The notes under the pieces were generated by a model. The model was given only the letters and a program-made list of their open reading frames with translations, ran no database searches and had not been told where the DNA came from. A stretch of 43,918 nt of DNA from an uncultured Anaerolineaceae bacterium (GTDB lineage Bacteria > Chloroflexota > Dehalococcoidia > Tepidiformales > Tepidiformaceae), in NCBI GenBank assembly GCA_964448165.1, contig CAYUVT010000001.1, forward strand, positions 10,351 to 54,268, in the 5' to 3' direction. Numbering within the stretch: the first letter of the stretch is position 1; every line of letters starts with the position of its first letter. Positions 2,776-41,396 of the stretch are shown here, one piece after another. Both the position numbers and the translations under genes were made by a program.

Positions 2776-2794
2776 TACTACAGGATCTGTCGTA
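2776..2794. promoter_or_regulatory. Operator-like dyad S1: TACTAC-N7-GTCGTA between divergent DUF2933 operon and sco1
   Basis: Read directly. It overlaps TAGAAT (2793-2798, + strand -10 candidate) and follows TATTCT on the minus strand. Spacer is 7 nt, unlike the other sites. Confidence 0.5.
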
Positions 2795-2916
2795 GAATAC
2801 GGTTACGTCTGCGGGGATGCAACAGCACCAACCCGCTCCGCCCGCACCCGAGCAACCGCGATGACCTGTGGCGGGCCGCGTGGACCGATCTCGAGGAACC
2901 ACGCTGGAGGCGTCTG

Positions 2917-3552
2917 GTGGCCCGACTTCCCCTGTTCAGGCTCACGGGCGGGAGAGCGTTGCCCGTCGTGCTCATCCTGGGCGCATCGCTGCTCGCGCTG
3001 ACAGCGGCCTCGTGCGGAGATGACGAGGCCAGGCCGCTGGAAGTCACCTTCGGCGACGAGGGTGTCGTGATCAACGGCGAGCGATGGCCTTACCAGGGCG
3101 CCGCGATGTCGCGCGAGATCCCGATGCCGGAATCACGTTGCTCTATGTGGGCTACACGAACTGCGACGACATCTGTCCGACCCACATGGCCATGATCGCG
3201 AGAGCGCTCGACGAGCTTCCTCCCGAGGTTCGCACCCGGGTGAGGGTAATCTTCATCACGGCCGATCCCGAACGCGACACGCCGGCGACGCTTCGCGAGT
3301 GGCTGGATCGCTTCGATGCGTCGTTCATCGGGCTGACGGGCGACCCTGAGGCCCCTTGTGAAGGTCCAGGAGGCGCTCGGCATGAACCCGGCGGCTGTCG
3401 CCCTGCCTGCCGACGAGGACTATGAGCTGAACCATGCTGCCTACGTGCTCGCCTTCCCGGCGGGTAGTCCCACCGCGTTGATCGCTTATCCGGACGGCAC
3501 GCTGGCCCAAGCCTATCGCGAGGACCTCCAGACGCTCGCGGCCGAGGATTAG
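2917..3552 (+). pseudogene. SCO1/SenC copper chaperone lipoprotein, frame broken twice (or two sequencing indels)
   Basis: Three ORF pieces. 2917-3195 has the lipoprotein signal LLALTAASC. 3084-3425 has LLYVGYTNCDDICP, FITADPERDTP and FIGLTGDPEA. 3358-3552 has VKVQEALGM...YELNHAAYVLAF. Frame changes near G-run 3096-3098 and back at C-run 3352-3355; removing one C restores GLTGDPEALVKVQEALG. Confidence 0.75.
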
Positions 3553-3680
3553 CACAACCAAGCGCTCGCCCCCGGTCTTGGTCGTCGTGCGAACTGCCGA
3601 GACTGCACGATTGGCGAACAGGCCGCCGAGTTGTTCGGACGCGGGCTGCGAGGTCGGCGCCGCCATCGTGCCGGAAGATC

Positions 3681-4364
3681 TCAAGAGACTCGCTCGGCGA
3701 CCACCACGTCCCGGTCGAGGTATTCACCGGGGCCGCCACCGTCCAGGTAGGCCCGGAAGCGGCCCCCGCAGGTGATCAGCGTGATCCATTCGGCCCCAGC
3801 GGGCTTCTCAGGCGCGGAGATGAGATCGCCCATGGGGATCGTCGTGACGTCGTAGCGCTGCTTCCGGAACACGCGATAGCGGTACTCCTGACCGTTCGCC
3901 ATAAGGACCGCGACCTCGTCGCCGGGCTCGAGCTTGGAGAGATTGAAGAAAGGCCCGCGGATGTTCGGCCAGTAGTCGACATGGGCGGAGAACAAAGCGT
4001 TGCCCAACCACCCGGGCCGGTCGTAGATGCCGTACCAGCCGACCTTGAGCGGGTCCTTCGGCACGTCGAGCTGGTTCTCGCCCGGGATCAGGCCGATGTT
4101 CTCGATGCCCGCGTCAACCTCGAACCGGGGGATCCGGAACCCGACGACCTCCCCGGCGAACGGCTCGGGAGTGGCGGTCGCAGTGGCCTCCTCGGGGACG
4201 ACGACGATGGGAGTGGACACCGCGCCCGCGGTCGTGGGCACGTCGAACGCGGCGAGCGGAGCGACGGCCTCGGGTTCGCCGGAGCGCGTGGCGCCGAACG
4301 CCCAGACGAGGAAGGCCAGCCCGGCCAGGAACGAAGCGACAGTGAGCAGGCGGAAGCGGCTCAT
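3681..4364 (-). CDS. Sortase-family transpeptidase (class F-like), membrane anchored
   Basis: MSRFRLLTVASFLAGLAFLVW anchor, LFSAHVDYW (His), TLITCGG (Cys), RDVVVAERV (Arg). ATG 4364; the ORF extension to 4454 crosses operator S2 and is unlikely to be translated. Confidence 0.8.
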   Translation of the reverse strand: MSRFRLLTVASFLAGLAFLVWAFGATRSGEPEAVAPLAAFDVPTTAGAVSTPIVVVPEEATATATPEPFAGEVVGFRIPRFEVDAGIENIGLIPGENQLDVPKDPLKVGWYGIYDRPGWLGNALFSAHVDYWPNIRGPFFNLSKLEPGDEVAVLMANGQEYRYRVFRKQRYDVTTIPMGDLISAPEKPAGAEWITLITCGGRFRAYLDGGGPGEYLDRDVVVAERVS

Positions 4365-4366
4365 CG

Positions 4367-4383
4367 TACTACGTATCGTAGTA
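4367..4383. promoter_or_regulatory. Operator-like dyad S2: TACTAC-N5-GTAGTA, 2 nt upstream of sortase ATG
   Basis: Perfect 6+6 palindrome read directly. No room for a Shine-Dalgarno, so the sortase mRNA may be leaderless or near-leaderless. Confidence 0.65.
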
Positions 4384-4468
4384 TCTGTTCGGGCTCCCGC
4401 CAATTCCACGAGGTGGCCAGTGCGGGTTCGATCGGACCCCGAAGTCTGCCCCACATGGGAGGGTGATG

Positions 4469-4485
4469 CACGACAACGTGTAGTA
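4469..4485. promoter_or_regulatory. Operator-like dyad S3: cACGAC-N5-GTAGTA upstream of lipoprotein gene
   Basis: One mismatch (C for T at position 1); 32 nt upstream of GTG 4517. Confidence 0.5.
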
Positions 4486-4516
4486 GATTGGTGGCACCGC
4501 CTCCGAGGAGAGCCAC

Positions 4517-4966
4517 GTGGGCATCCAGGCCGGCCGTGTTCGCTTTATCTTAGGCGCAGCAGTCGTCGCAGCCTCCGCGGTCATCCTCGCCGGGTGCGTT
4601 AACCACGGTGACGACGCTACGCCCACGCCTGACACCACCAGCCCGCGTGCCGTCGTCGAGCGATTCTTTCACTGGTACGTGAGCGAGCGAAACCTCGGAC
4701 GCGACCCGATGGCCCGGTCGGCCCTCCAGGCGAACGCGGACGTGACGCAAGAGTTCATCTCATCAATGGAGGCCGTAGCCGCGGGCGGGCGCGACCCGAT
4801 GTTGTGTTCCGGGGAGATCCCTCACGCCTTCACCGTTGGTGAGCCAGAGGTGTCCGGCACGGCGGCCCGCGTCACCGTAGGCGGCAACCTTGCGGCCTGG
4901 AGGATTGACCTCAGGCAGGCAAGTTCGGTCTGGCGCATCACAGCTGTCACCTGCGCCGTCGGGTGA
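4517..4966 (+). CDS. Lipoprotein of unknown function (DUF3828-like FxWY motif)
   Basis: GTG 4517 after GGAGGAG; signal peptide with lipobox ILAGC; FFHWYV motif. Confidence 0.6.
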   Translation: MGIQAGRVRFILGAAVVAASAVILAGCVNHGDDATPTPDTTSPRAVVERFFHWYVSERNLGRDPMARSALQANADVTQEFISSMEAVAAGGRDPMLCSGEIPHAFTVGEPEVSGTAARVTVGGNLAAWRIDLRQASSVWRITAVTCAVG

Positions 4967-5339
4967 GAGAGCGTCGGGCTACGCCCGCGCTTTTCGGGAT
5001 CACCGGTTCCCTGACCCGGATTGGCGATGCCTGGTTTTCCTCAGTTGGACGGCGATTCAGGTCGATGCGACCACGACGCCGTGCGGCGAGCCCCTGTGCC
5101 GCGATGAGGAGCCAAAGCAGCCCGCTTGGGACCGTGACCACCGCGGAGACGGTCAATCCGAGGGAGGCATAGGTGACCGAGAACAGCAGGAGCAGGACGC
5201 CGGTCGGCAAGCTCGTGAGCACGGGCGGCTTCGCGCTGCCGAGGGCCGTTGGCAGGAGAGAGGCGAAGAACACGATCGCCCCGACGGTGAAGACGAGATC
5301 CTGCCACGATGCCAAGATACCTCCTCCCACCCACGTCAC
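4947..5339 (-). CDS. Small multi-TM membrane protein, unknown function
   Basis: GTG 5339 overlaps the M50 stop (GTGA). Three hydrophobic helices (VFTVGAIVFFASLL, GVLLLLFSVTYASLGL, GLLWLLIAAQGL). The basic tail may be over-extended. Confidence 0.45.
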   Translation of the reverse strand: MTWVGGGILASWQDLVFTVGAIVFFASLLPTALGSAKPPVLTSLPTGVLLLLFSVTYASLGLTVSAVVTVPSGLLWLLIAAQGLAARRRGRIDLNRRPTEENQASPIRVREPVIPKSAGVARRSLTRRRR

Positions 5340-6499
5340 GTCCCACTCGGCCCGTCCGCGCCGTCCGTGGATGGCTGGTCCGGTGCGACGGCGCCCGCAA
5401 GTTGCACGCGGTCGAGGAGCTCCCGGCGGGTGATCAGACCCACCATCCGCCCGTCCGCGAGCACCGGAACCTGGTTGAGCCGGCCATCACCGAGCAGGTG
5501 AAGGACATCGAGCGCCGACGTGTCCGTTGAAACCGTTACGACCTTCTCGCGAGGGGTCATGATGCGCTGTGCAGGCGTGGTACTCCATTCGGCACGCGGC
5601 ACGCGCTGGACGTCCGTCACCGTCAGGATGCCGAGGACCGCGCCGCCGTTCGCGACCATCACCGCCCGTTCCCCCTTCTCCACGATGTAGCTGTCGACCA
5701 CCTCCTGCACCGGCATTCCTGGCGGGACGCTGACGAAGTCGTCGTGCATGAGGTTCCGGGCGCGAAGTGGGCGGAGGATCGTGTCGAGTTGCAGCTGCGC
5801 AGATTCGCCGCGGGCCGCGCCGAGGAGGAACCAGCCGATGAAGCCAAACCAGATGCCGTTCCAAAGGAATCCGTTGAGGACGAACACGAACCCGATGCCC
5901 ATCAGGCCGTAGGCGAACACTTCTCCAACCCCCGCCGCGGTGCTCGTGGCGCGCCGAAAGCTACGCGTGCGACCCCAGACGATCGAACGGAGGACGCGAC
6001 CGCCGTCCAGGGGGAAACCCGGCAGGAGGTTGAACACGCCGAGAAGAAGGTTGACGGCGGCCAGGTAGCCGAAGATCGCCTCGACTTTCTCGTTGCTGGC
6101 ACCGGCCGTAATAGCGACCACGCCGGCGATGGCCGCGATGACCAGGCTCGTTGCCGGACCCACCACGGCGATGGCGAACTCCGTGCGTGCGGTTTCCGGC
6201 TGGCGCGCCAGCTGAGAAACGCCCCCAAAGATGAAGAGTGTGATACGCGGCACCGGCACACCGCGACGAATCGCAACGAGCGCATGCGCCAGCTCGTGAA
6301 TAAGCACCGTGACGAATAAGAGGACGGCCGCGGCCACGCCCACCAGCCAGTAGGCAGTCGTGCTCCACTCTTTGTAGTGGTCGGGGAAGACGCCATCGGC
6401 GAGCGTCCACGAAAGAAGCGCGACGATCAGCAGCCAGGAGAAGTGGATGTTGATGTCAATGCCGGCGAGCCGGCATACGCGGAAAGTGGTCCCGTGCAT
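5336..6499 (-). CDS. Site-2 protease family M50 metalloprotease with C-terminal CBS pair
   Basis: HELAHALVA (HExxH), NLLPGFPLDGGRVL (NxxPxxxLDG), then two CBS-like repeats (AVLGILTVTDV, RMVGLITRREL). Confidence 0.9.
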   Translation of the reverse strand: MHGTTFRVCRLAGIDINIHFSWLLIVALLSWTLADGVFPDHYKEWSTTAYWLVGVAAAVLLFVTVLIHELAHALVAIRRGVPVPRITLFIFGGVSQLARQPETARTEFAIAVVGPATSLVIAAIAGVVAITAGASNEKVEAIFGYLAAVNLLLGVFNLLPGFPLDGGRVLRSIVWGRTRSFRRATSTAAGVGEVFAYGLMGIGFVFVLNGFLWNGIWFGFIGWFLLGAARGESAQLQLDTILRPLRARNLMHDDFVSVPPGMPVQEVVDSYIVEKGERAVMVANGGAVLGILTVTDVQRVPRAEWSTTPAQRIMTPREKVVTVSTDTSALDVLHLLGDGRLNQVPVLADGRMVGLITRRELLDRVQLAGAVAPDQPSTDGADGPSGT

Positions 6500-6611
6500 C
6501 GGCTATCCGACTTCCACTGGGCGTTCATCGGCGAGCGGCGTATCCTGAGCCGGCGATTGGGGGCTCAACCTTTCTCCCTCTACGCCGGAGCCCTGGAGCG
6601 GCCCAGGCGAC

Positions 6612-6628
6612 TACTACACGATATAGTA
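6612..6628. promoter_or_regulatory. Operator-like dyad S4: TACTAC-N5-aTAGTA upstream of the M50 gene
   Basis: One mismatch. On the minus strand it overlaps TACTAT (-10 candidate), about 110 nt upstream of ATG 6499. Confidence 0.5.
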
Positions 6629-6799
6629 CAAACGCTCGTGGGCCGACGGCCGAATGGACCCAGGTTCGCAGGTCATCCGGGCGATCCTCCGCGCGAGCCG
6701 GGCTGCCTGAGGTTGAATGCCCGTTGATGGCGACTGGGCGATATTCGCGGCGCCCAAACCGGCCTTGAAGAACGACTCAGAGGGATGCGAGGGTCCCCG

Positions 6800-7615
6800 C
6801 TACATCAGGAGGTGGGAGGTGCCTACCGCCGCGCCGACCGCGACCAGGTGAGCGACCACAGCGGGCAGGACCAGTCCCGCGGCGAGGGCGAGAAAGCTGC
6901 GCGTTGGAGCTTGCGGGAGGGGCGTCTCGGGGTGAACGAGGCGCGTTAGACGAAGCTCGACGTTCGCTCCGGTGACGCCAGCGGCCGCGGAATGGGCCGG
7001 CGGCAAGGCTGCGGCGGCAATCGCCTCGAAGAGCTCGCGACGGCGCGCGCCATTGCGGATGGCATAGTCGTCCGCTTCGCACTCTGTCCGGAGCGTCTCG
7101 GTCTCAACCGCATTGGCCACCCAGGGCAGAAACGGGAACGCCCGGCCAGTTGCCCGCAGCAGCAGTCTCCAGAGCACGTCCCTGTTCAGCTGGTGCGCCC
7201 GTTCGTGCAGAAGCGCCGCGCGCAACTCGGCATAGCCTAGTTCCCGCTCAGCCCCCTGGCTCACGAAGACTGTGGGCCGCAGCCCACCAGCCGTAAAGAT
7301 CACGATTGCATCCGAAGGAAGCACGCGGTAGTACAGGCCGTCAAGGCGAGCGGGCGTGCTGGTCCGCGTGAGCTGCCGGAGATCGCCGACTCCGCGTGCT
7401 GTCCGGATCAAAGAAAAAAGGAACCCGGCCGCCGGCAGGGCAGACACCAGCGCGAGCGTCAGGAACCCGAAGACCCGCGGGTGCGAGAACTCGATCGAAA
7501 GGTTGGAGAGCCCAGCGGCATAGAGGTGTGTGACCGCGGGATGGACCGTCGCCACCGGCGCAAGCATCAGCGCGACCGCGAGGGCCAGGAGCGCGAGCCG
7601 GCTGCCGCGGCTCAC
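6800..7615 (-). CDS. BlaR1/MecR1-type M56 membrane metalloprotease lacking a sensor domain
   Basis: TM helices plus LLHERAHQLNRD (HExxH). Only 271 aa, so no C-terminal penicillin-binding domain. Start overlaps the repressor stop by 4 nt. Confidence 0.85.
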   Translation of the reverse strand: MSRGSRLALLALAVALMLAPVATVHPAVTHLYAAGLSNLSIEFSHPRVFGFLTLALVSALPAAGFLFSLIRTARGVGDLRQLTRTSTPARLDGLYYRVLPSDAIVIFTAGGLRPTVFVSQGAERELGYAELRAALLHERAHQLNRDVLWRLLLRATGRAFPFLPWVANAVETETLRTECEADDYAIRNGARRRELFEAIAAAALPPAHSAAAGVTGANVELRLTRLVHPETPLPQAPTRSFLALAAGLVLPAVVAHLVAVGAAVGTSHLLM

Positions 7616-8022
7616 GGATCGATGTCCGTCAGGTGGGCCCTGAGCTGAGCCAGGAACGTCGGGTTGAGTCGTTCGGCCTCCAGCAGGAAGGCCGAGAGGC
7701 CGGCATCGCCAAGCTTCACCATCGCGCCCGCCAGGAATTCCCCACGGCGCTCGGAGAACTGCTCACGCGACATTGTCGGTGCGTACACGTGCGCTTTCCC
7801 CTCGCCGCGGCGCGCAACGAGGCCCTTTTTGTGCAGGCGCTGCAGGACCGTAAGGATCGTGGTGTAAGCGAGACCTCTCGGATTACCGACCTCCGCGAAT
7901 ACCTCAGGGGTGGCTAATTCGCCCTTGTCCCACAACGCCGCAAGGACCTGTGCCTCGAGCTCGCCAACGGATATCGACTGTGCAGGCTCTTTCTCCGGGT
8001 TCATGACCTCATCGTAAGGCAT
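7612..8022 (-). CDS. BlaI/MecI/CopY-family winged-helix transcriptional repressor (no Cys)
   Basis: ATG 8022 after AGGAGGAGG. GELEAQVLAALWDKGELATPEV...LAYTTILTVLQRLHKKGLVARR...HVYAP is the family signature. The CopY C-terminal CxCx4CxC motif is absent. Confidence 0.9.
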   Translation of the reverse strand: MPYDEVMNPEKEPAQSISVGELEAQVLAALWDKGELATPEVFAEVGNPRGLAYTTILTVLQRLHKKGLVARRGEGKAHVYAPTMSREQFSERRGEFLAGAMVKLGDAGLSAFLLEAERLNPTFLAQLRAHLTDIDP

Positions 8023-8117
8023 GTCCTCCTCCTGCTGGACGGCCCACTTGGTACACGGGGAATTGGCCACTCGACCGTAGCCGCGGCACCGATCCCGGCT
8101 CACGCTAACGATGGTGA

Positions 8118-8134
8118 TACGACGGGGCGTAGTA
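8118..8134. promoter_or_regulatory. Operator-like dyad S5: TACGAC-N5-GTAGTA between repressor gene and divergent SHOCT/cupredoxin genes
   Basis: Matches the consensus perfectly. Overlaps TAGTAT (+ strand -10 candidate); about 95 nt upstream of the repressor ATG, so a likely autoregulatory site. Confidence 0.65.
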
Positions 8135-8262
8135 TTGCATGACGATGCCCGAGGCGGCTCGTCTTGTGCGGCCTTGTGCCGGCCCCGGCGAGCCGCATCA
8201 ATGCGGCGCGCGGACGGCCGCCGGGCAGAGCAAGCGCCGATCGCCGCGAAAGGAGCAGTTGC

Positions 8263-8487
8263 ATGTGGGGAGCACACGAGGGAATGGGATGGTGGATGCT
8301 GTTCGGTGGCGTTTTCTGGGTGTTATTCATCGTGACCTTGGTGTACCTGTTCACGAGCGCATTCGACCGCAGCTCTGGCACGACGGAGACACGATCAGAC
8401 ACACCACTGGAGATCGCGAAGCGCCGGCTCGCAGCCGGCGAGATCTCCCATGAGGAGTTCGACCGGCTGCGCGAGAAGCTTCGCTAG
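8263..8487 (+). CDS. SHOCT-domain small membrane protein
   Basis: ATG 8263 after AAAGGAG. MWGAHEGMGWWMLFGGVFWVLFIV TM segment, then the C-terminal SHOCT motif LEIAKRRLAAGEISHEEFDRLREKL. Confidence 0.75.
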   Translation: MWGAHEGMGWWMLFGGVFWVLFIVTLVYLFTSAFDRSSGTTETRSDTPLEIAKRRLAAGEISHEEFDRLREKLR

Positions 8488-8551
8488 GCCTGGGTCGCAG
8501 CAGCGGCGGATCGTCAGCGTGCCGGAGAGACCGGCAAGGGAGTAGTGACAG

Positions 8552-9010
8552 ATGCAATCCACAGGGACAGCGACACCGGGCCAGCAGCGAGCGCTCGTCT
8601 TGCTGGCCGTCGTACTGCTCCTCGGCATGCTGGTCGGGATCGCTGGCATGGCCATGTGGATGGCCGCCGCATGGCCCGGCGGCTGGGGCTTCGACCACAT
8701 GAACAGGATGATGGGCGGAGGGGGACGCGACAGCTCGCGCGACACGGCTGTACAGGGTTCGTTGGCCGAGACCATCAACATCGAGGACTTCGCCTACTCC
8801 CCCGGTAACCTTGAGGTGCCCGTGGGGGCGAGCGTGACCTGGATCAACCGCGACAGCGCGCCGCACTCGGCAACTGACCGGGACGGCTCCTGGGACACGG
8901 GGCTCCTGGCGCAGGGAGAGCGGGCCACGCTCGTCTTCGACGCACCCGGCACCTTCGACTACTACTGCACCGTGCACCCGAACATGAAGGCGCAGCTCGT
9001 TGTGCGTTAA
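8552..9010 (+). CDS. Membrane-anchored type-1 copper (cupredoxin/plastocyanin-like) protein
   Basis: TM anchor, Met/His-rich linker (FDHMNRMMGGGG), and cupredoxin ligands APHS...YYCTVHPNM (H, C, H, M). Confidence 0.85.
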   Translation: MQSTGTATPGQQRALVLLAVVLLLGMLVGIAGMAMWMAAAWPGGWGFDHMNRMMGGGGRDSSRDTAVQGSLAETINIEDFAYSPGNLEVPVGASVTWINRDSAPHSATDRDGSWDTGLLAQGERATLVFDAPGTFDYYCTVHPNMKAQLVVR

Positions 9011-9332
9011 GACGGACCAAGCCGCTCATCAATTGAAGGGGGCGCCCGTGAGGACACGAACCAGACCGCCGAGGTCCGAGCTTCTGTCAGGGACCGATGA
9101 ATCTGCCTGCCTGGTCGTCGAGCACGTGGGCGGAGCGACGGTGACCCAGTATGAGCCGGACATGAATGCCAAAGGTCAGGGTAGGGTAGGGATCCGGTCC
9201 GGGTTCGCACGATCGAGCTTTGGCGGCGATTGAGATGACTCCCATCTATGCGCTTGCGGCGGGCGCGGATTCGGCCATGCTGGCCAGCTTCGCGGCGCAT
9301 CGTCACCCGGTGAGGCAGGTCCGGAGTTCCCA

Positions 9333-10304
9333 ATGAAACGGGTTGCCGTGCTAACCAGTGGCGGCGACGCGCCCGGGATGAACGCTGCGATACGCGCCGT
9401 CGTGCGGAGCGGCATTCACAATGGTTGGGAGCTGGTCGGCGTGCGACGTGGCTACGCCGGGCTCATGTCCGGCGAGTTCGTGCCGCTCCGTGCGAGGGAT
9501 GTCGGCGGGATCATCCACCAGCCAGGGACCATGCTCGGGAGCGCTCGAGCCGCTGGCTTCAGGACCGCCGAAGGGCGTGAACAGGCCATCGAGCAGCTGG
9601 ACTCTCACGGGATCGGCGGGCTGGTAGTGATCGGGGGCAACGGCTCGCAGGCGGGCGCCGCGGCACTTAGTGAGCTGGGCGTAGCTGTGGTTGGAATCGC
9701 GTCGACGATCGACAACGACCTCCATGGATCGGATCAGAGTATCGGGGTGGACACGGCGCTGAACATTGCGCTTGAAGCGCTCGATCGTTTGAGAGCTACT
9801 GCTTCATCCCACGAACGCGCTTTCCTTGTCGAAGTCATGGGCCGCGATTGCGGATATCTCGCGCTCGTCGCAGCTATCGCCGGTGGGGCGGAGGCTGTCG
9901 TCATCCCGGAAGTCGATCGCGACCCGGATTCCGTCGTGCAGGAGCTACAGGCGGCGTACGAGCGGGGCAAGTCCCACGGGCTGGTCGTAGTCGCTGAGGG
10001 AGCGAGGTATGACGCGGAGGCGATCGCGCGGCACGTCAGGGAGCACCAGGATCAGGTCGGCTTCGAGCTGCGCGTGACGAAGCTCGGGCATGTCCAGCGC
10101 GGCGGAACTCCCACCGTCTTCGACCGATTGCTGGCCACCCAGCTCGGTGCCGCCGCCATCGACCAGCTCCATCTCGGCGCCGCTGGCAGACTCGTCGGCA
10201 TCCTCGGCGGGCGAGTTGCCACGACCCCGCTTGGCGAGGTTGCGAGCAAGACGAAGGAGCTCGACCACGGCCTGCTTGAACTGGCCCGCGTCCTCGCAGA
10301 CTGA
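9333..10304 (+). CDS. pfkA: ATP-dependent 6-phosphofructokinase
   Basis: MKRVAVLTSGGDAPGMNAAIRAVVR, IGGNGS, TIDNDL, MGRDCGYLAL; 323 aa. Confidence 0.95.
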   Translation: MKRVAVLTSGGDAPGMNAAIRAVVRSGIHNGWELVGVRRGYAGLMSGEFVPLRARDVGGIIHQPGTMLGSARAAGFRTAEGREQAIEQLDSHGIGGLVVIGGNGSQAGAAALSELGVAVVGIASTIDNDLHGSDQSIGVDTALNIALEALDRLRATASSHERAFLVEVMGRDCGYLALVAAIAGGAEAVVIPEVDRDPDSVVQELQAAYERGKSHGLVVVAEGARYDAEAIARHVREHQDQVGFELRVTKLGHVQRGGTPTVFDRLLATQLGAAAIDQLHLGAAGRLVGILGGRVATTPLGEVASKTKELDHGLLELARVLAD

Positions 10305-10429
10305 GGGGAGGCGCGCCGCTGCTTACCCGGCCTGAGCCCGCAAACCTGCGGCACACGCTGGTGCTTCGGGGTCTGGCGCCCGTTCGCGAACCCAATCCTT
10401 CACTGACCGTCCACTGCCACGGACGCTTC

Positions 10430-10446
10430 TACGACTTATCGTCGTA
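10430..10446. promoter_or_regulatory. Operator-like dyad S6: TACGAC-N5-GTCGTA
   Basis: Perfect palindrome, 30 nt upstream of ATG 10476, followed by GAGAGGAG. Confidence 0.65.
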
Positions 10447-10475
10447 CGAAGAGATCCCCCCGAGAGGAGCAACCA

Positions 10476-10805
10476 ATGCTTCACCTGATCATCCGGCCGT
10501 TCATCCGGCTGCTGGCCACGAGCCCGGAGATCGAGCGGCTCCCCTTCGTGCAACGGCCGCGGACTATGGCCGCGACCTGGGCCGGGCTCCTCGTCTGCAA
10601 GGTCGGGGCAATGGTCCTGCTGTCGCCCGCGATCGGGGCAGAGCTATTCGTCGCGACGCTTGTCGCTGGGATCGCTGCGACGTACGTCCGCTTCGGCCTG
10701 GGGCGGTCAATCGAAAGGGTCAATGGGGCCACGACGAGCCGTGGTTCGAAGGCGACCAGCATCACCCAGTCGGCGAACCCACTCGCTTCGCCCGTGCGGG
10801 CGTAA
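10476..10805 (+). CDS. Hypothetical membrane protein
   Basis: Strong SD and operator upstream; hydrophobic core TWAGLLVCKVGAMVLL...FVATLVAGIAATYV. The C-terminal third looks low-complexity. An antisense ORF (10481-11059) shares wobble positions, so the 3' end is uncertain. Confidence 0.4.
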   Translation: MLHLIIRPFIRLLATSPEIERLPFVQRPRTMAATWAGLLVCKVGAMVLLSPAIGAELFVATLVAGIAATYVRFGLGRSIERVNGATTSRGSKATSITQSANPLASPVRA

Positions 10806-10959
10806 CTGCCGATGACGTAGGGGCCCTCCGGCATCTTCCCACGATCTGGGGCACATCGAGCCAAGTACCCGGTTGTGCGGAGAATCCGGCGACTCCTTCT
10901 CGCTGGAAACGGCCTCGCGGCGGTCATGCTGGCCGCCCAGGAAGGTGAGCGAATCGGCA

Positions 10960-12801: not shown

Positions 12802-12831
12802 TCGCCTCCCCCGACTCCTTCTTGCGGTACG

Positions 12832-13416: not shown

Positions 13417-13426
13417 GGCGAACCTC

Positions 13427-13654
13427 CTATAATTTGCTCGATCCCGTGTCGGCTGCAGCTGGAGGCGCGGCGGCTTCGGCCTCGCGCGCCGGGGCCGCTG
13501 CCGGTTGGGCGACAGGGTCGGTCTCGGCCAGTAGTTCCTTCTCCGCTGCGAGCCAGTCGTCGAGGTCGTGTCCGTCCGCGCAGCCACGCGCACAGTAGAG
13601 CTCGTACGCGCGTCGCTCGATCGCGCTCGGATCGACGAAAAGGTTCTCCGGCAT
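13427..13654 (-). CDS. DUF2934-family small protein with CARGC (CxxxC) variant
   Basis: RRAYELYCARGCADGHDLDDWLAAE matches the DUF2934 core (RAYxxW/YxxRG...D..DWxxAE). The ATG overlaps the upstream TGA (TGATG). Confidence 0.75.
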   Translation of the reverse strand: MPENLFVDPSAIERRAYELYCARGCADGHDLDDWLAAEKELLAETDPVAQPAAAPAREAEAAAPPAAADTGSSKL

Positions 13655-13872: not shown

Positions 13873-13898
13873 CCAATCCCGACGCGCCGCCTGAAGTC

Positions 13899-24257: not shown

Positions 24258-24258
24258 G

Positions 24259-33445: not shown

Positions 33446-33461
33446 TACTACGGTGGTCGTA
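33446..33461. promoter_or_regulatory. Operator-like dyad S12: TACTAC-N4-GTCGTA upstream of gap-ATPase operon
   Basis: Matches the consensus perfectly; 46 nt upstream of ATG 33400. Confidence 0.65.
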
Positions 33462-34231: not shown

Positions 34232-34247
34232 TACTACATCCGTCGTA
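34232..34247. promoter_or_regulatory. Operator-like dyad S13: TACTAC-N4-GTCGTA in divergent intergenic region
   Basis: Matches the consensus perfectly; lies between ATG 34190 (minus) and ATG 34371 (plus). Confidence 0.65.
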
Positions 34248-34962: not shown

Positions 34963-36360
34963 TTAGCCGATGCAACAGGTCATTACCGAGACGTCGCGGG
35001 TGAAGGCCTGCGCAGCAAGCTTTATCGCCTCCGAGTACGTCGGAAAGACGTGCACCGTGTCGATAATGTCGTAGATGCTGAGGCCGTGCCGGATCGCCAG
35101 CGTGGCCTCGTGGATGATCTCGGCGGCATTGGTGCCGCATGCGTACGCGCCACGGACGCGGTTATCCCGGTCGATGGTGAGCTTCACCGCACCCACGGTG
35201 TCCTTCACGGCCATCGCCCTGGGGACCTGGGAATACTGAACCGTGCGGCAGTTGCAGTAGCCGGTGCGGGCCATCGACTCGGCTTCCGTCAGCCCGACGC
35301 CGGCCAGTTGGGGTGAGGTGAAGACTGCCCAGGGCACGGCATCGTAGTTCAATGAGTCGCGCCGGCCGTCAAGCGCGTTGGCAGCGGCCAACGCCCCTTC
35401 CTTGGCCGCCACGGTTTCCAGCGGCATGCGCCCGGTCACGTCACCGGCCACCCAGAGGCCGTGACCGGCCTCGTACCAGTTCGTGGTCTCGATGAATCCC
35501 GTCCTGGTCACCCGTCCACTCGCGTTCTCGAGGCCCAACTCCTCGGTGTTCGCCCGAATGCCTGTCGCCACCAGGATGGCGTCGGCCTCGAAGCAATCGC
35601 TGGCCTGCGGCCCGCACACGACGGTCTTCGGTGGTCCTGGCTGGACCCGTTCGATGCGCATGCCCGTTCGGACCGTGATCCCTTCGGCTTCGAGGGCCTC
35701 CTGCAGGACCGCCGCGATCTCCGGTTCGGCCTTCGGGACGATCTGCGGCAGTGCCTCGAGGACCGTCACCTGAGAGCCGAAGCGGGCGAAGACCTGGGCG
35801 AACTCCAGGCCCAGCGGCCCGCCGCCGATCACGACGAGCTTCCCGGGTGCCTCGTCGAGTTGGAGCGCTTCAACGTTTGTAAGGTAGCCGGCGTCCGCGA
35901 GGCCGGGGATCGGCGGGATGCTGGCCTGGCTGCCCGTAGCGACCAGGATGTGGCGGCCTTCGATCACCTCGCCGCCAACGTCGACTTTCCCCGGCGCGAC
36001 GATGCGGCCCCGGCCCTCCCGGAAGTCCACATGGTCGAGCGACCGGAGGACCTCCTCATAGTTCCGGTGACGAAGGCCTGCTACGAGGGCGTCCTTCTCC
36101 TCGCGAGCGGCTTTGACCGAGAAGTGGCCGTTCGGGCTCGCCGGATGCACCGAGTCGAAGGCGGAGCGCCTGGTCGCCACCAGTGCCTCGGCGATTCCGA
36201 GCAGGTGCTTGGACGGCACGCAGCCAACATTGACGCAGGTGCCGCCGAGCGGCAGCCCCGCGTTGACCATCAGCGCTGTCGCGCCCAGGTCGTTCGCTTT
36301 CGTGGCAGCTGCGAAGGCGGCTGCCCCTCCGCCGATGATCACGAGATCGTAGGCAGTCAC
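34963..36360 (-). CDS. merA: Mercuric reductase (core enzyme, no NmerA domain)
   Basis: DLVIIGGGAAAFAAA, redox-active GGTCVNVGCVPSK, C-terminal vicinal Cys MTCCIG. Confidence 0.9.
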   Translation of the reverse strand: MTAYDLVIIGGGAAAFAAATKANDLGATALMVNAGLPLGGTCVNVGCVPSKHLLGIAEALVATRRSAFDSVHPASPNGHFSVKAAREEKDALVAGLRHRNYEEVLRSLDHVDFREGRGRIVAPGKVDVGGEVIEGRHILVATGSQASIPPIPGLADAGYLTNVEALQLDEAPGKLVVIGGGPLGLEFAQVFARFGSQVTVLEALPQIVPKAEPEIAAVLQEALEAEGITVRTGMRIERVQPGPPKTVVCGPQASDCFEADAILVATGIRANTEELGLENASGRVTRTGFIETTNWYEAGHGLWVAGDVTGRMPLETVAAKEGALAAANALDGRRDSLNYDAVPWAVFTSPQLAGVGLTEAESMARTGYCNCRTVQYSQVPRAMAVKDTVGAVKLTIDRDNRVRGAYACGTNAAEIIHEATLAIRHGLSIYDIIDTVHVFPTYSEAIKLAAQAFTRDVSVMTCCIG

Positions 36361-36818
36361 ACTGGCACCTCCGATTGGGGTTGGATGGACTCGGGCTCAC
36401 GGTCGACGATCCCGACGCAGTCACAGGGATTGAGCGTGAGCAGGCGGTGATCGTCGGGCTCGATGCCGCGGAGCCCGGCCGCGAGCGAGGCCAGCTGTTG
36501 CTCCGCTCTTTCGAGCTCACGTAGCCGCGCCTGGACTCTGGTCACGAGGCCGTCAGTCGCGTCGATCAGCGCTTCGCGCATCTCCCGGCAGCTGCCGTCG
36601 TGGTAGATACGAATCAGCGTCGACATCTCCGCCAGCGAGCAGCCCAGCTCCCGTAGCCGTCGCGCGAACCGGAGGGTTTCCAGGTGTTGGTCGCTGTACT
36701 CGCGGTACCCGCTCGTACCACGAGGCACGGCGGGGAGGACACCGGCCCGCTCGTAGTAGCGGATGGTGTCGGCTGAGAGGCCGGAGGCGTCCGCTGCATC
36801 TCGAATCTTCAATGGCAT
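36357..36818 (-). CDS. merR: MerR-family metal-responsive activator (Hg-type Cys pattern)
   Basis: IRDAADASGLSADTIRYYERAGVL HTH. Cys in DGSCREM and, after the coiled coil, NPCDCVG. The stop overlaps the merA start by 4 nt. Confidence 0.85.
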   Translation of the reverse strand: MPLKIRDAADASGLSADTIRYYERAGVLPAVPRGTSGYREYSDQHLETLRFARRLRELGCSLAEMSTLIRIYHDGSCREMREALIDATDGLVTRVQARLRELERAEQQLASLAAGLRGIEPDDHRLLTLNPCDCVGIVDREPESIQPQSEVPV

Positions 36819-36947: not shown

Positions 36948-36963
36948 TACGACGTGCGTAGGA
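36948..36963. promoter_or_regulatory. Operator-like dyad S14: TACGAC-N4-GTAGgA upstream of FAD oxidoreductase
   Basis: One mismatch; the right half merges into GGAGGAG. Confidence 0.5.
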
Positions 36964-38211: not shown

Positions 38212-38288
38212 GGCGGTGCCGGTCGACCGCCAACTGCTCCGCGCACCGTGCTGGTAAGGGCGGACCGGATCCGTGGGCGCCGGCCGCC

Positions 38289-41279
38289 TCAGGCGCCAAT
38301 GTACCGCTTCGGGTCAGCCATGAACTTGTCGTGGCAGGCCTGTGAGCAGAAGTAGTAGGTCTTACCCTCGTGCTCCATTCTTGCCGCGGCGGTGTCCGGG
38401 TCGATGTCCATCCCGCAGACCGGGTCCTTGACGGTGGTTGGGGTTGCCATGTCGCTACCTCCCGGGTCAAATGTTGCTTCGCGTGTTGCTTCGCGCACCT
38501 CGACGGTGGGCGCCGAGATGGCATGGCTGCTGGTTGGTCCCGCGAGCGGCGGGACGCGGTAGGTCCTGAGCCGGTTGGCGTTGGCCACAACGGAGAGCGA
38601 GCTGAGCGCCATCGCGCCGGCGGCGATAATGGGGCTCAACTGCCACCCCAGGAACGGATAGAGCACGCCGGCCGCCACCGGGATGCCGACGGTGTTATAG
38701 AAGAATGCGAAGAACAGGTTCTCGCGGATGTTTCGCATCGTGCTCCGGCTCAGCGAGACGGCCGTGACCACGCCTTTGAGCTCACCTGAGATAAGGGTGA
38801 TGTCCGCCGCTTCGATGGCGACATCCGTCCCGGTGCCAATGGCGAAGCCGACGTCCGCCTGGGCGAGGGCGGGCGCATCGTTTATCCCATCTCCCACCAT
38901 GCCGACGAGCTTGCCCTCGTCCTGGAGCCGGCGGACTTCGAGGGCCTTGTCCTCGGGCAGGACCTCCGCAAGGACTCGGCCGATACCCACCTCCCGTGCG
39001 ATCGCCTCCGCGGTCCGCCGGTTGTCCCCGGTGATCATGACCACCTCGAGCCCGAGCTTCTGGAGCGCGGCGACGGCGGACCGGGAATCGTCCTTCACGG
39101 TGTCCGCGACCGCGACCAGCCCGGCCGGCGCTTCGTCGACGGCGACGAGCATCGGCGTCTTGCCTTCGCCGGAGAGGCGCTCGGCGTCCGATTCGAGGGT
39201 CGCGACATCGAGCCCGGCATCGGCCAGGAGCCGCCGGTTGCCTACGAGCAGGCGATGGCCGTCCACCGCGACCCGTATCCCTTTGCCGGTGATCGACTCG
39301 AAGTCGGACGACTCGGTGAGGTGCAGGTCGCGGTCTTCGGCTCCTCGCACGATGGCCTGGGCGAGGGGATGCTCGGACGAACGCTCCGCCGAGGCAACGA
39401 GCTGAAGGAACTCGGCCTCGGCAAGTCCATTGCGGACGACGATGTCGGTCAGCGCTGGCTGGCCGCGGGTGATTGTTCCCGTCTTGTCCAGGATCACGGT
39501 CTCGAGCTTGTGTGCCGTCTCCAGCGCCTCGGCGGAACGGATGAGGATGCCGTTCTCGGCGCCCTTGCCCGTACCCACCATGATGGAGAGCGGTGTGGCC
39601 AGGCCGAGCGCGCAGGGGCAGGCGATGATCAGCACCGAGACGGCACTCACCAGGGCGAACGTGAACACCGGATCCGACCCGAAGTCGTACCAGACCACGA
39701 AGGTGGCGATAGCGATGAAGATGACGGCCGGCACGAAATAGCTGGCGGCCAGGTCGGCGAGGCGCTGGATGGGCGCCTTCGAACCCTGGGCCTGCTCCAC
39801 CAGACGGATGATCTGAGAGAGCATTGTGTCCTTGCCGACCCTGGCAGCGCGGAAGCGAAAGGCGCCCGTCTGGTTGATGGTTGCACCGATGACGGTGTCC
39901 CCCGCCTCCTTGGTGACGGGCAGCGACTCGCCGGTGACCATGGATTCGTCGATGCTGGAGCGCCCCTCGACGATCTCTCCGTCCACCGGGATCTTCTCGC
40001 CCGGGCGCACGAGCACCACGTCCCCGGGCACAACGTCCTCGATTGGCACCTCCTCCTCCCGGCCATCGCGGATCACCCGGGCCGTCTTCGCCTGCAGGCC
40101 GATGAGCTTGCGGATCGCCTCGCCGGTGCCGGCTTTGGCGCGCGCTTCGAGCAGGCGTCCGAGGAGGATGAGCGTGAGGATGACACCGACCGCCTCGTAG
40201 TAGACCTCGCGCAGGTCCTCGGGGAGGAGACCCGGCGCGGCGGTCACGATCAGGCTGTAGGTGAAGGCCGCGATCGTCCCGACCGTGATCAGGGTGTTCA
40301 TGTCGGCGGTGCGATTGCGGAGGATGAGCCAGCCAGTGCGGTGGATCGGCCAGCCGGTGTAGGCCATTACCGGGGCGATGAGCGCGAGCTGGAACCAACG
40401 GTTGAGCAGGAAGTCGGGGATGGAATCGACGCCGAATAGTTCATGGAGCATCACCGTTGCCGCGACGGGCGTCGTGAGAATCGCCCCGAAAGCCACGCGC
40501 CGCGTCAGGTCACGGATCTCGGCCTGGCGGGCGAGCGCTTCGGCGTCCTCGGTCTCCTGCGAGCCCGGCTCGGTGCGCTCTCGGACCCTGTAGCCCGACG
40601 ACTCGATGGCTGACTTCATCTCCGCCACCGAGACCTGCTCGGGGTCGAATGTCACGGTCACCCGCTCTGCGGCGTAGTTCACGTCCACGCGGTCAATGCC
40701 CGGGAGTTGCTCGACAAACGACTCGATGTTCGTGACGCATGTCGGACAGGTGACACCTCCGCCAATCAGCGCGAACTCCACTTGTGCGAGCTCGCCGATC
40801 TCGACCGTCGGGCCTACGCCGACCGCCTTCGCGACCTCGTGCGTGTGGCCGTCCTCCGCGCCGGTGATCGGCGTAGCATCCGCGGCCGGCGCGTCGCCGG
40901 CCATGGCTCCCTCCACGACGATCGTGCCGTGCACCATGTTCATACCGCACGCGAAACCGAACTGCCCCGCGCGGTCCGGCGTGAACTCGACCGATGTCTT
41001 CTGGAATGCCGGGAGCGATTTACTGATCCGGAAGTCCGGGAAAACCACACGGGAGGTGCAGTCGCTGCCTTCCTGGCGGTCGAAGATGAGACGTACCGGG
41101 ACGCCCTGCTGGACATGGATCAGGCTGGGCGAGTAACCGCCCTTGACGGTGACCTCGACCTCCTGGACGCCCCCGCGGAGCTCCGCCCGGCGGGCTTGCT
41201 TTGGCCCGAAGAAGAACCAAGCCAGGAGGGCGATGATGCCGGCGGCCCCGGCGGTTACGAGGATCTCGTCGACGCTCAT
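38289..41279 (-). CDS. copA: Cu(I)-exporting P1B-1 ATPase with TM plus cupredoxin-like domain, HMA domain and C-terminal YHS/TRASH domain
   Basis: ATG 41279 after AAGGAGG. N-terminal TM, then [11 protein letters not shown]...[25 protein letters not shown]; TM6 [13 protein letters not shown]; DKTGTIT; [11 protein letters not shown]-terminus DPVCGMDID...[12 protein letters not shown]. Confidence 0.95.
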
Positions 41280-41379
41280 CGGCTCTGCCTCCTTACCCTG
41301 TAGACCTTGTCTTCGGTCGACTCCTTCGGTCCCGTCGCTCAATCGGACGAGAACGGACACGCCTCGGGCCCTTCCATCG

Positions 41380-41396
41380 TACTACCCCAGGCCGTA
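41380..41396. promoter_or_regulatory. Operator-like dyad S15: TACTAC-N5-GcCGTA upstream of copA
   Basis: One mismatch; about 100 nt upstream of ATG 41279. Confidence 0.45.

Follow-up and report, generated by a model that had tools for sequence, protein, structure and literature searches.

A repeated 16-17 bp dyad in a Chloroflexota copper/mercury, envelope and carbon-reserve island agrees with the operator of Mycobacterium-type BlaI repressors

RESULTS

Genes and dyads of the locus

The stretch of DNA analysed here (the window, 43,918 nt) derives from an uncultured Anaerolineaceae bacterium of the Chloroflexota (Tepidiformaceae; assembly GCA_964448165.1, contig CAYUVT010000001.1, positions 10,351-54,268, forward strand). 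It belongs to an island of ∼57 kb that carries copper/mercury, cell-envelope and carbon-reserve genes in this uncultivated host. A dyad of the form TACKAC-N4/5/7-GTMGTA recurs in the window, and a pattern scan recovered all 15 copies listed in an earlier sequence-only reading, with the same coordinates, spacers and mismatch counts. The dyads, the genes behind them and the regulatory gene pair are as follows.

1-2758, minus: DUF2933, BNR/Ycf48-like, TlpA-like thioredoxin and CcdA, the first four genes of an operon
2776-2794: perfect N7 dyad, TACTAC-aggatct-GTCGTA, 17 nt upstream of ATG 2758 (minus) of the operon DUF2933-BNR-TlpA-CcdA-BlaI-2-BlaR-2
4367-4383: perfect N5 dyad, 2 nt upstream of the sortase ATG 4364 (minus)
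4469-4485: N5 dyad, one mismatch, 31 nt upstream of GTG 4517 (plus) of a 149-aa putative secreted protein
6612-6628: N5 dyad, one mismatch, 112 nt upstream of a gene for a site-2 protease (M50-CBS; start 6499, minus)
6800-7615, minus: blaR-1, 271-aa membrane zinc metalloprotease without a sensor domain
7612-8022, minus: blaI-1, Penicillinase_R-family winged-helix repressor of 136 aa
8118-8134: perfect N5 dyad, between the divergent blaI-1/blaR-1 (ATG 8022, minus) and SHOCT-cupredoxin (plus) genes
10430-10446: perfect N5 dyad, 29 nt upstream of a 109-aa membrane-protein gene (10476, plus)
13899-13914: N4 dyad, one mismatch, 244 nt upstream of DUF2934-Usp-(YHS)glycogen phosphorylase (minus)
16663-16678: perfect N4 dyad, overlapping the 5' end of a His-rich ORF of 61 aa that lies upstream of PPK2-DoxX-Usp (minus)
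16953-16969: perfect N5 dyad, 92 nt upstream of cytochrome b genes (17062, plus)
18959-18974: N4 dyad, one mismatch, abutting a His-rich ORF that begins with GTG and lies upstream of GT4-GH65-Usp (plus)
24242-24257: N4 dyad, one mismatch, abutting a His-rich membrane peptide, with YgaP-like TM and HMA (CopZ-like) proteins encoded next (plus)
33446-33461: perfect N4 dyad, 45 nt upstream of a GAPDH-like/P-type ATPase/MFS/KorA/KorB operon (start 33400, minus)
34232-34247: perfect N4 dyad, between genes for a DUF2934 protein (ATG 34190, minus) and a CPxC membrane protein of 169 aa (34371, plus)
36948-36963: N4 dyad, one mismatch, 36 nt upstream of an FAD protein (37000, plus) and 129 nt upstream of merR/merA-like (36818, minus)
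41380-41396: N5 dyad, one mismatch, 100 nt upstream of a cupredoxin-HMA-P1B-ATPase-YHS gene (start 41279, minus)

The operon preceded by the N7 dyad ends with BlaI-2 (137 aa) and BlaR-2 (311 aa, PF05569), both located immediately outside the left end of the window. The 2776 dyad also adjoins a plus-strand SCO1-like gene that is frameshifted. The series of dyads continues past both window ends, with at least six further copies in the adjoining DNA, giving at least 21 across the island.

Enrichment and placement of the dyads

Matches with at most one mismatch number 15 against ∼0.1 expected, bearing out the extreme enrichment claimed previously; dinucleotide shuffles yielded 0.05 (N4) plus 0.04 (N5) chance matches and shuffles preserving local composition 0.16. 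The G+C content of 0.65-0.70 likewise agrees with the earlier description of the DNA as one-third A+T. Matches with two mismatches occur at chance level (4 observed, 3.96 expected), so the set of sites is sharply bounded.

By public gene calls the non-coding share of the window is 12.5%, and all 15 site centres fall outside genes (P ∼3e-14), which confirms the non-coding placement. The stronger statement that no dyad occurs in coding DNA is true of the centres but not to the letter, as a further one-mismatch N5 match, probably due to chance, lies at 39673 within a P-type ATPase gene, and site 16663 covers the start codon of the called 61-aa ORF. Of 23 intergenic gaps that reach 40 nt or more, 13 contain a dyad; those without one are mostly intra-operon or between convergent genes, the clear exception being the 322-nt gap upstream of PFK (9011-9332). 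Two thirds of the dyads (10/15) have a start codon no more than 50 nt away. Overlap with -10-like hexamers was seen by eye, sites 18959 and 24242 lie 5 nt 3' of the extended -10 elements TGgTATAGT and TGcTATAGT, respectively, and the spacer of 16663 contains the Shine-Dalgarno sequence GGAG; a sigma-70 scan of positions 1-20000 returned no canonical promoters.

The BlaI-1/BlaR-1 pair

As the sequence-only reading had proposed, a Penicillinase_R product is encoded at 7612-8022 with a dyad in its own upstream region, and assignment of the sites to the BlaI/MecI/CopY family as operators is supported by a Pfam profile search (PF03965, 81.9 bits), by the closest solved structure (2G9W, Mycobacterium tuberculosis (Mtb) BlaI; E 9e-11, PDB search) and by the match of the dyad to the Mtb BlaI motif. 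The recognition helix of BlaI-1 reads R-G-LAYTTILTVLQRL, of which LAYTT(V/I)(M/L)(T/A)V is common to BlaI-1 and Mtb BlaI, and R49, L51-T55, R62, L63 and K66 are invariant over both paralogue families and Mtb BlaI. In the HMMER alignment the Phe of 'VLNF' in Staphylococcus aureus BlaI pairs with F112 of BlaI-1, in 'GLSAFLLEAE'; we take the BlaR1 cut of S. aureus BlaI to be N101|F102.

The two genes are translationally coupled, with a 4-nt overlap between the blaI-1 stop and the blaR-1 start, and their order is kept in all four genomes whose gene calls were inspected. BlaR-1 carries HERAH at 137-141, with H137, E138, H141 and E178 invariant among orthologues, and no metal-binding cluster was seen in its sequence. 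Over the HExxH core, a seven-orthologue profile aligns with both S. aureus BlaR1 (8EXP, E 1.2e-3) and HtpX (E 3e-4). BlaR-1 itself scores 19 bits against PF05569 (M56), under the Pfam cut-off of 31, which counts against the interpretation preferred below.

Conservation in relatives

Conservation at orthologous promoters, named beforehand as a test, was found: an N5 dyad precedes the blaI-1 orthologue in 8/8 Chloroflexota loci, roughly 95-200 nt from its start. Each relative locus has 2-7 dyads where 0.02-0.22 are expected. Among 78 metagenome loci picked by the BlaI helix alone, 41 have a dyad within 400 nt upstream. Orthologous targets that retain the dyad include sortase, cytochrome b, PEPCK/HAD-GH65, cupredoxin and a 73-75-aa protein with UbiB. 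In locus L027, a dyad at 12029 precedes sortase (start 12049) in the arrangement seen at window 4367, and an N5 dyad at 6860 lies ∼100 nt upstream of cytochrome b. Perfect N7 dyads stand at the equivalent place in L027 (12808), L031 (7464) and L032 (7161), and this spacing precedes the BlaI-2 operon in every case found.

DISCUSSION

Identity of the dyad-binding factor

Our results show that the repeated dyad is real and agrees with the operator of a Mycobacterium-type BlaI repressor. The experimentally derived ChIP-seq motifs of Mtb BlaI (Rv1846c) are tctACGACaccgtGTAGTAGac and TACtACacngtGTaGTA, with 14 sites underlying the motif (Minch et al. 2015, PMC4301838, supplementary file 5), and the Rv1846c promoter itself contains TACTAC-tcgct-GTCGTA. 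We consider it probable, at roughly 0.78, that the Rv1846c-type BlaI subfamily uses the dyads as operators, as predicted from sequence, with 8118 the predicted autoregulatory operator of blaI-1/blaR-1. The number of operators, at least 21, is far more than in the BlaI regulons on record and counts against this interpretation, which also needs either one dimer accepting both N4 and N5 or another paralogue for the N4 sites.

The earlier interpretation was correct as to an operator of the BlaI/MecI/CopY family and a repressor with its own upstream site, but its analogy with CopY and the cop box does not stand. A CopY/CopR-like copper sensor, which would bind Cu(I) and then leave a cop-box-like operator, shares the Pfam family PF03965 with BlaI-1 and would suit the many copper genes behind the dyads and the copper-related neighbours kept in relatives. 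However, BlaI-1 is without any cysteine and so lacks the C-terminal CxC...CxC metal site that defines such sensors, its nearest characterised relative is Mtb BlaI rather than CopY, and its pairing with a BlaR-like protease makes proteolysis, not metal binding, the expected switch. The cop box KACAnnTGTM is not enriched in the window (1 against 0.66 expected), and the half-site centres are 10-13 bp apart, unlike those of TACAnnTGTA. A Cu(I) sensor of this type is contradicted at the level of sequence and is very improbable. It is just as hard to credit that another DNA-binding protein uses the dyad, be it the MerR-family regulator encoded at 36357-36818 or some factor not linked to the locus, and that the closeness of blaI is coincidental: a merR gene is present in the window, but the dyad equals the ChIP-seq motif of Mtb BlaI, accompanies blaI where merR was not called (L026-L028) and does so in 41/78 unrelated metagenome loci. 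Least probable of all is an RNA element, a 5'-UTR hairpin hiding the Shine-Dalgarno sequence or stabilising the mRNA. Three sites at small-ORF genes (16663, 18959 and 24242) would indeed fold with -7 to -9 kcal/mol and GGAG in the loop; other sites fold weakly (-2 to -3 kcal/mol), the K and M positions show no covariation (6/15 pairable), several dyads overlap or precede a likely -10 or serve divergent genes, and there were zero Rfam family matches. We read the dyad as a protein site rather than an RNA element.

One regulon or several

That the island forms a single regulon, as previously suggested, is unproven, since a second BlaI/BlaR pair adjoins the window and three spacing classes are kept promoter by promoter. 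It is possible, though we would put it clearly short of even odds, that there are two or three regulons in which BlaI paralogues share the TACKAC half-site and sort targets by spacer length, with N5 belonging to BlaI-1, N7 to BlaI-2 and N4 to either or to a third paralogue. BlaI-2/BlaR-2 shares the half-site and probably reads the N7 operator before its own operon. The helix is invariant, but the residue after TVL is Q in BlaI-1 and V, T or S in BlaI-2, and the turn that follows also differs. Spacing is kept at orthologous promoters (N5 at blaI-1, 8/8; N7 at the BlaI-2 operon, 4/4; N4 at PEPCK, 3/3), the BlaI-2-centred locus L032 has the N7 dyad alone in 20 kb, and in the wider family the spacing at a lineage's own promoters is N4, N5 or N6. 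In and beside the window, N4 is found at all Usp, carbon-reserve and central-metabolism operons and N5 at envelope operons, with both classes at copper-related operons. Sorting by spacer fits less well with L027, which retains the N7 dyad yet has no BlaI-2 after CcdA on that contig, and with L002 and L004, where blaI-1 orthologues have a start-abutting N4 dyad plus an N5 dyad. Moreover, a flexible dimer could tolerate the 1-bp difference between N4 and N5, and a third paralogue was not found in the window.

Proposed mechanism and signal

For this host we infer binding, repression, proteolysis and the kind of signal. If the dyads are BlaI operators, a BlaI-1 dimer would place one winged-helix domain on each TAC(G/T)AC half-site. 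The operators appear to sit on, or immediately 3' of, the -10 element, transcription start or ribosome-binding region, so that occupancy would prevent initiation at 15 or more operons in the window and six or more beside it. BlaR-1, with its HExxH...E core but no extracytoplasmic sensor, would be expected to cut the BlaI-1 dimerisation helix upon a membrane or envelope signal; the repressor would then be released and the whole island derepressed, blaI-blaR included (negative autoregulation). Judged from gene content, copper, thiol or envelope stress is the most likely signal. Copper and mercury genes are abundant behind the dyads and conserved neighbours in relatives are copper-related, but about half of the dyad operons carry carbon-reserve, energy or Usp genes; metal stress, read from gene content alone, is plausible but unproven.

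Comparison with known systems

The closest counterpart is the non-canonical BlaIR of mycobacteria (Mtb Rv1846c/Rv1845c and the M. abscessus orthologue), which has the LAYTT(V/I)(M/L)xVLQRL helix in a Penicillinase_R winged helix, in Mtb the operator TAC(G/T)AC-N5-GT(A/C)GTA with a site at its own promoter, and an M56-type protease partner without a penicillin-binding sensor domain (PMC13492132). Targets in membrane/energy metabolism are also shared, ATP synthase being one in Mtb (PMC12565901) and energy metabolism being a target in M. abscessus (cited in PMC13492132). The present system differs from Mtb BlaI in phylum (Chloroflexota, not Actinomycetota), in low protein identity beyond the DNA-binding domain, in having three conserved spacings and two adjacent BlaI/BlaR pairs, and in its copper/mercury resistance, envelope, carbon-reserve and central-metabolism targets; beta-lactamase and ATP synthase were not seen. 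A 2009 ChIP-chip study by Sala reportedly placed Mtb BlaI at five loci genome-wide, whereas here at least 21 operators lie within ∼57 kb.

BlaI-BlaR1 of S. aureus and Bacillus licheniformis and MecI-MecR1 share the fold family, a dimeric repressor and a dyad at its own promoter; in S. aureus the neighbouring zinc-protease gene (8EXP) has an HExxH core that aligns with BlaR-1, and the dimerisation-helix Phe aligning with the reported BlaI cleavage site is conserved in BlaI-1. These systems differ in their TACA/TGTA operator with a short spacer (PMC7253601), in the C-terminal beta-lactam sensor domain of BlaR1/MecR1 (PMC13492132), absent from BlaR-1, and in regulons of one or two beta-lactam-resistance operons. 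CopY/CopR of Firmicutes belongs to the same Pfam family and likewise controls a P1B copper ATPase, but CopY senses Cu(I)/Zn(II) via C-terminal CxC motifs and binds RNYKACANNTGTMRNY (PMC7253601). Clostridium thermocellum BlaI_0696/BlaI_1845 is similar in autoregulation and in a 5-nt-spaced inverted repeat, GTCTAT-N5, of different half-site sequence, and it controls 1-3 operons and requires paired dyads (PMC8457756), in contrast to the single dyads before more than 20 operons here. CenR of C. difficile CenIR is likewise a BlaR without the transpeptidase domain (PMC13492132). The kind of system is already known; it is the copy number that stands out, giving an unusually large local regulon.

Number and placement of the dyads

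Direct search of the window for the dyad TAC(G/T)AC-Nx-GT(A/C)GTA (TACKAC...GTMGTA, where Nx is the spacer) recovered all 15 sites of the sequence-only reading, with the spacers and mismatch counts that it had reported. The N4 form has seven matches with at most one mismatch (0.05 expected), the N5 form has eight (0.04 expected) and the N7 form occurs as a single perfect copy at 2776; shuffles preserving local composition give 0.16 expected matches at up to one mismatch, the G+C content of the window being 65–70% throughout. Matches with two mismatches are at chance level in the window (4 versus 3.96 expected), so the dyad family is sharply bounded, and no weak sites were added.

All 15 site centres fall within the non-coding 12.5% of the window (P about 3e-14), as defined by public gene calls for the source contig, which bears out the placement in non-coding gaps proposed earlier. 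The accompanying claim that coding DNA holds no dyad stands for these 15 sites, but one extra one-mismatch N5 match is found at 39673, inside a large P-type ATPase gene, where it is probably a chance occurrence. A dyad is present in 13 of the 23 intergenic gaps of at least 40 nt, and dyad-free gaps are mostly within operons or between convergent genes. The clear exception is the 322-nt gap at 9011–9332, before the phosphofructokinase (PFK) gene, which has neither a dyad nor an Rfam match; it is among the largest dyad-free gaps and the only such one directly upstream of a gene start.

The dyad is a DNA element for a protein and not an RNA hairpin. The hairpin reading was rejected on the observations that the K and M positions vary independently and are pairable in only 6 of the 15 sites, that the folding of most sites is weak (−2 to −3 kcal/mol) and that the window has no Rfam match. 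Oriented towards the gene that follows, most sites fit one of two arrangements, in which the dyad either lies ∼5 nt after a −10-like hexamer or continues from its 3′ half-site into a TAnnnT hexamer; an extended −10 element (TGnTATAGT, at 18945 and 24228) is found ahead of sites 18959 and 24242. A start codon lies within 50 nt of 10 of the 15 sites and abuts three of them. Such geometry would be that of a repressor occluding a promoter or start site, although the overlap of dyad and −10 element rests on reading the sequence, since a scan of 1–20000 for consensus sigma-70 −35/−10 promoters gave no canonical promoter (1.6 expected). Promoters in this interval apparently depend on a −10 or an extended −10 element.

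The BlaI-1 repressor and the putative protease BlaR-1

The candidate regulators within the window are encoded by two adjoining genes:

7612–8022, minus strand: blaI-1, 136 aa, Penicillinase_R winged helix (PF03965, E = 5.5e-23, 81.9 bits against a cut-off of 22.6)
6800–7615, minus strand: blaR-1, 271-aa membrane protein with HERAH, whose start overlaps the blaI-1 stop by 4 nt

The assignment of the repressor to the BlaI (Penicillinase_R) family, made at first from the sequence alone, proved right: the PF03965 match is joined by a structural match and a motif match. The solved structure closest to BlaI-1 is 2G9W, M. tuberculosis BlaI (Rv1846c), with which it has the recognition helix in common (LAYTTILTVLQRLHKKGLV versus LAYTTVMAVLQRLAKKNLV in the alignment). 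BlaI-1 conforms to the mycobacterial-subfamily helix pattern R-x-LAYTT(V/I)(M/L)(T/A)VLQRL, and R49, L51, A52, Y53, T54, T55, R62, L63 and K66 are invariant in 11 sequences including the M. tuberculosis protein. ChIP-seq motifs for Rv1846c are tctACGACaccgtGTAGTAGac and, in the palindromic mode, TACtACacngtGTaGTA, and the Rv1846c promoter contains TACTAC-tcgct-GTCGTA (Minch et al. 2015, PMC4301838, supplementary file 5). The N5 dyad of the window is this published operator, TAC(G/T)AC-N5-GT(A/C)GTA, and the motif itself is already known and not new; the N4 and N7 variants, both present in the window, are in contrast undescribed for Rv1846c. Site 8118, 95 nt before the ATG of blaI-1, is the predicted autoregulatory operator, and a ribosome-binding site, AGGAGGAGG, lies ahead of the gene.

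Gene calls for the window's species and for the relatives L026, L027 and L028 give the order blaI-1 then blaR-1 in all four genomes. BlaR-1 is a putative M56 gluzincin (HExxH plus a downstream Glu). It scores 19 bits against Pfam M56 (PF05569), under the cut-off of 31, and for BlaR-2 (the putative protease of a second pair just left of the window) the precomputed annotation lists an unmarked PF05569 match (E at most 1e-5). Residues H137, E138, H141 and E178 are invariant in seven BlaR orthologues and paralogues, and a profile of these sequences aligns across the zinc site with S. aureus BlaR1 (8EXP, E = 1.2e-3) and with HtpX, an M48 protease (E = 3e-4), the alignment to S. aureus BlaR1 spanning only residues 189–256 of 602. 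A conserved Phe in the dimerisation helix of BlaI-1, where signal-dependent proteolysis may act, aligns with the Phe of the cleavage site reported for S. aureus BlaI.

Two better-known modes of action were weighed. In CopY/CopR, a C-terminal CxC...CxC forms the Cu(I)/Zn(II) site (PMC7253601). The analogy to CopY drawn in the sequence-only reading was not borne out: BlaI-1 has no cysteine and hence no such site, the cop box KACAnnTGTM matches the window once (3168, within an ORF) versus 0.66 expected, and direct metal sensing in the manner of CopY is rejected on these two grounds. Canonical BlaR1 and MecR1 carry a C-terminal penicillin-binding (transpeptidase-like) sensor domain, whereas Pfam and precomputed annotations give no sensor-domain match in BlaR-1 (271 aa) or BlaR-2 (311 aa). 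Canonical BlaI–BlaR1 and MecI–MecR1 also control a beta-lactamase or PBP2a gene; no beta-lactamase or PBP family is among the Pfam matches of window proteins or the precomputed flank annotations.

Conservation in relatives and in the wider family

The window comes from an uncultivated Chloroflexota lineage, and the genomes nearest to it are labelled Chloroflexi, Dehalococcoidia and Tepidiformales. It lies within the 161,680-bp JGI contig Ga0498930_0000296 (JGI 3300061720) and recurs at 99.98–100% identity in Logan assemblies of several other runs; samples in which the strain occurs include the SRR348312xx runs and DRR538838. An N5 dyad is found roughly 95–200 nt before blaI-1 in eight of eight genomes (the window, L001–L004 and L026–L028), whose orthologous BlaI-1 proteins are 55–72% identical, and related loci contain 2–7 dyads each versus 0.02–0.22 expected. 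Conservation in orthologous promoters, on which the idea of a regulon depended in the sequence-only reading, is observed for the sortase, where the dyad abuts the ATG (window, L027), cytochrome b (window, L027), the divergent PEPCK / HAD-GH65 promoters (L016, L017, L027), a 73–75-aa protein adjoining UbiB or a P-type ATPase (L016, L026, L031) and cupredoxin (L028, L029).

A wider scan covered 80 metagenome loci (L036–L115) for which the sole criterion was that they encode LAYTT[VI][ML]TV. Among the 78 testable loci, 41 have a dyad within 400 nt upstream; N5 predominates (33 perfect sites in 544 kb), with N4 or N6 in particular lineages. Within this LAYTT-helix subfamily the half-sites of the autoregulatory dyad are unchanged and the spacer is N4, N5 or N6 by lineage, examples from lower-G+C organisms being TACTACaattGTAGTA and TACTACaatggtGTAGTA. 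Metagenome loci of 9–20 kb hold 0–3 sites, compared with 2–7 in close relatives and 15–16 in the window, and the abundance of sites is therefore a local expansion specific to this Chloroflexota clade.

Extent and variability of the island

Across the window and both flanks there are at least 21 sites in about 57 kb, a lower bound as the right-hand boundary was not reached. The flanking matches are:

Right flank (L016): N4 site before PEPCK / HAD-GH65
Right flank (L016): N5 site before a 151-aa gene
Right flank (L016): N5 site between the 73-aa gene with UbiB and a NicO-type metal permease (334-aa NicO-like protein)
Left flank (L029): perfect N4 site before ccsA
Left flank (L029): perfect N5 site
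Left flank (L029): one-mismatch N5 site before a second cupredoxin
Left flank (L029): one-mismatch N7 match near the preceding left-flank sites

The last 4.5 kb of L029, which encodes a methyltransferase, unknown genes and a DnaG-like primase, contains no further N4, N5 or N7 site.

Strain-level variation suggests that the island is an accessory, variable region. Beyond the right end, an IS3-family transposase in one assembly occupies the place of a multicopper oxidase in another (L016 3006–4207, L017 1722–3032), and the Usp gene at 12832–13416 is split in some assemblies (L006/L010/L034). At window position 270, one base differs from the JGI contig copy (L007), and this introduces an in-frame stop into ccdA (DsbD_TM), a 241-aa ORF in other assemblies. 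The SCO1/SenC-like gene at 3084–3552 (plus strand), intact as a 156-aa ORF in strain L020, is by comparison broken by a 1-bp insertion, alongside a 3-bp deletion, and is probably a pseudogene in the window's strain. Cytochrome b (17062–18159, plus strand) is split into 117-aa and 238-aa ORFs in all assemblies of the species and is one 368-aa gene in the relative L027.

A second BlaI/BlaR pair and the spacer classes

No second BlaI was found inside the window by tblastn; loci extending it leftwards encode one:

L007 18056–19397 and L029 10001–11342: BlaI-2 (137 aa) and BlaR-2 (311 aa, PF05569), just beyond window position 1

The pair closes an operon behind the N7 site (start 2758) that encodes DUF2933, a BNR/Ycf48-like protein, a TlpA-like thioredoxin, CcdA, BlaI-2 and BlaR-2, and is followed by ResB and CcsA (cytochrome c biogenesis) and then the second cupredoxin. 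BlaI-1 and BlaI-2 share only 31% identity; the invariant R-x-LAYTT start of the helix is retained in BlaI-2, but the Q of TVLQRL and the next turn differ. A perfect N7 dyad precedes the BlaI-2-type operon in four of four genomes (window, L027, L031, L032), and in L032 it is the only N4–N7 site in 20 kb. From centre to centre, the half-sites are separated by 10, 11 and 13 bp in N4, N5 and N7, respectively, which would place the N7 half-sites on a clearly different helix face, and a dedicated paralogue is therefore an attractive explanation. However, L027 has the N7 site without BlaI-2 at that position.

A sorting of N4 and N5 sites by function is suggestive. N4 sites precede every Usp-containing operon, PEPCK, the GAPDH-Kor operon, merR / FAD and ccsA, and N5 sites precede sortase, the site-2 protease, blaIR / SHOCT-cupredoxin, cytochrome b, the CopA-like ATPase and the 73-aa / UbiB / NicO genes. 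Metal genes are split, with the HMA (CopZ-like) operon and the second P-type ATPase behind N4.

Target genes

Metal and thiol genes behind dyads encode a pair of P1B ATPases (cupredoxin, HMA and YHS domains being present in one), cupredoxins, an HMA chaperone, DUF2933, His-rich small membrane peptides, MerR and a MerA-like reductase (whose orthologue adjoins MerB in L032), TlpA/CcdA and the frameshifted SCO1. Envelope genes behind dyads are sortase, the M50 site-2 protease and a secreted 149-aa protein. The reserve and energy genes are PFK, YHS-glycogen phosphorylase, GT4/GH65, PPK2, a GAPDH-like gene, KorAB, cytochrome b, DoxX and three to four Usp. Taken as a whole, the functions of the island are copper and mercury detoxification, envelope maturation, polyphosphate, glycogen/trehalose turnover, PEPCK, GAPDH, 2-oxoacid:ferredoxin oxidoreductase and four Usp genes. 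A copper/envelope core of the regulon is likely, because SHOCT, cupredoxin, PCYCGC, the YHS-ATPase, a YHS-bearing MacB/FtsX transporter, Lgt, sortase and TlpA/CcdA stay with blaI-1 in relatives. The single metal-stress regulon proposed from the sequence alone is not established, and the BlaI-1 and BlaR-1 sequences contain no feature pointing to the signal.

Two of the encoded proteins are unusual domain fusions. The glycogen phosphorylase (10960–12795, minus strand) has an N-terminal YHS metal-binding domain, and a P1B ATPase (38289–41279, minus strand) combines N-terminal cupredoxin-like and HMA domains with a C-terminal YHS; an ABC ATPase of the relative L026 has YHS too. Three small ORFs without a Pfam match have His-rich beginnings, MEQMEHGHG... 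(16478–16663, minus strand), VQRHEHDDE... (18975–19235, plus strand) and VQPHEHDATEGK... (24259–24405, plus strand). In all three, the Shine-Dalgarno GGAG is within the N4 operator spacer and the start codon abuts the operator; the 48-aa His-rich ORF ends in a Cys-Cys transmembrane helix.

Comparison with known systems

We tentatively propose, at a probability of about 0.3, that a sensor-less BlaR-type switch is the master control of a ∼57-kb stress-survival island of more than 20 operons, in which two BlaI/BlaR pairs partition their targets by a spacer code, with N5 for the envelope, N4 for metabolic and Usp genes, N7 for BlaI-2's own operon and copper-related genes split between N4 and N5. 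The conserved spacing classes may separate the two paralogous repressors, and the island is a natural setting in which to see cleanly whether a difference in spacer length is enough to keep apart the regulons of paralogues with a shared half-site.

BlaI and BlaR are textbook beta-lactam switches. Most BlaR homologues, however, lack a domain that senses the antibiotic and have neither known signals nor known targets (PMC13492132); for one sensor-less system of this kind, the island supplies an extensive list of targets that is conserved and has sharp limits. The genes on it suggest a response in which copper, thiol and envelope stress is tied to the metabolism of carbon reserves and energy, echoing the link of mycobacterial BlaI to ATP synthase or energy metabolism. 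The arrangement of blaI-1/blaR-1 is that known as 'non-canonical BlaIR' from M. tuberculosis, M. abscessus and, as CenIR, C. difficile (PMC13492132). The system is a further case of the known Rv1846c-type BlaI/BlaR; what sets it apart is how many operators it has and how densely they lie, together with its target set and its conserved spacing classes.
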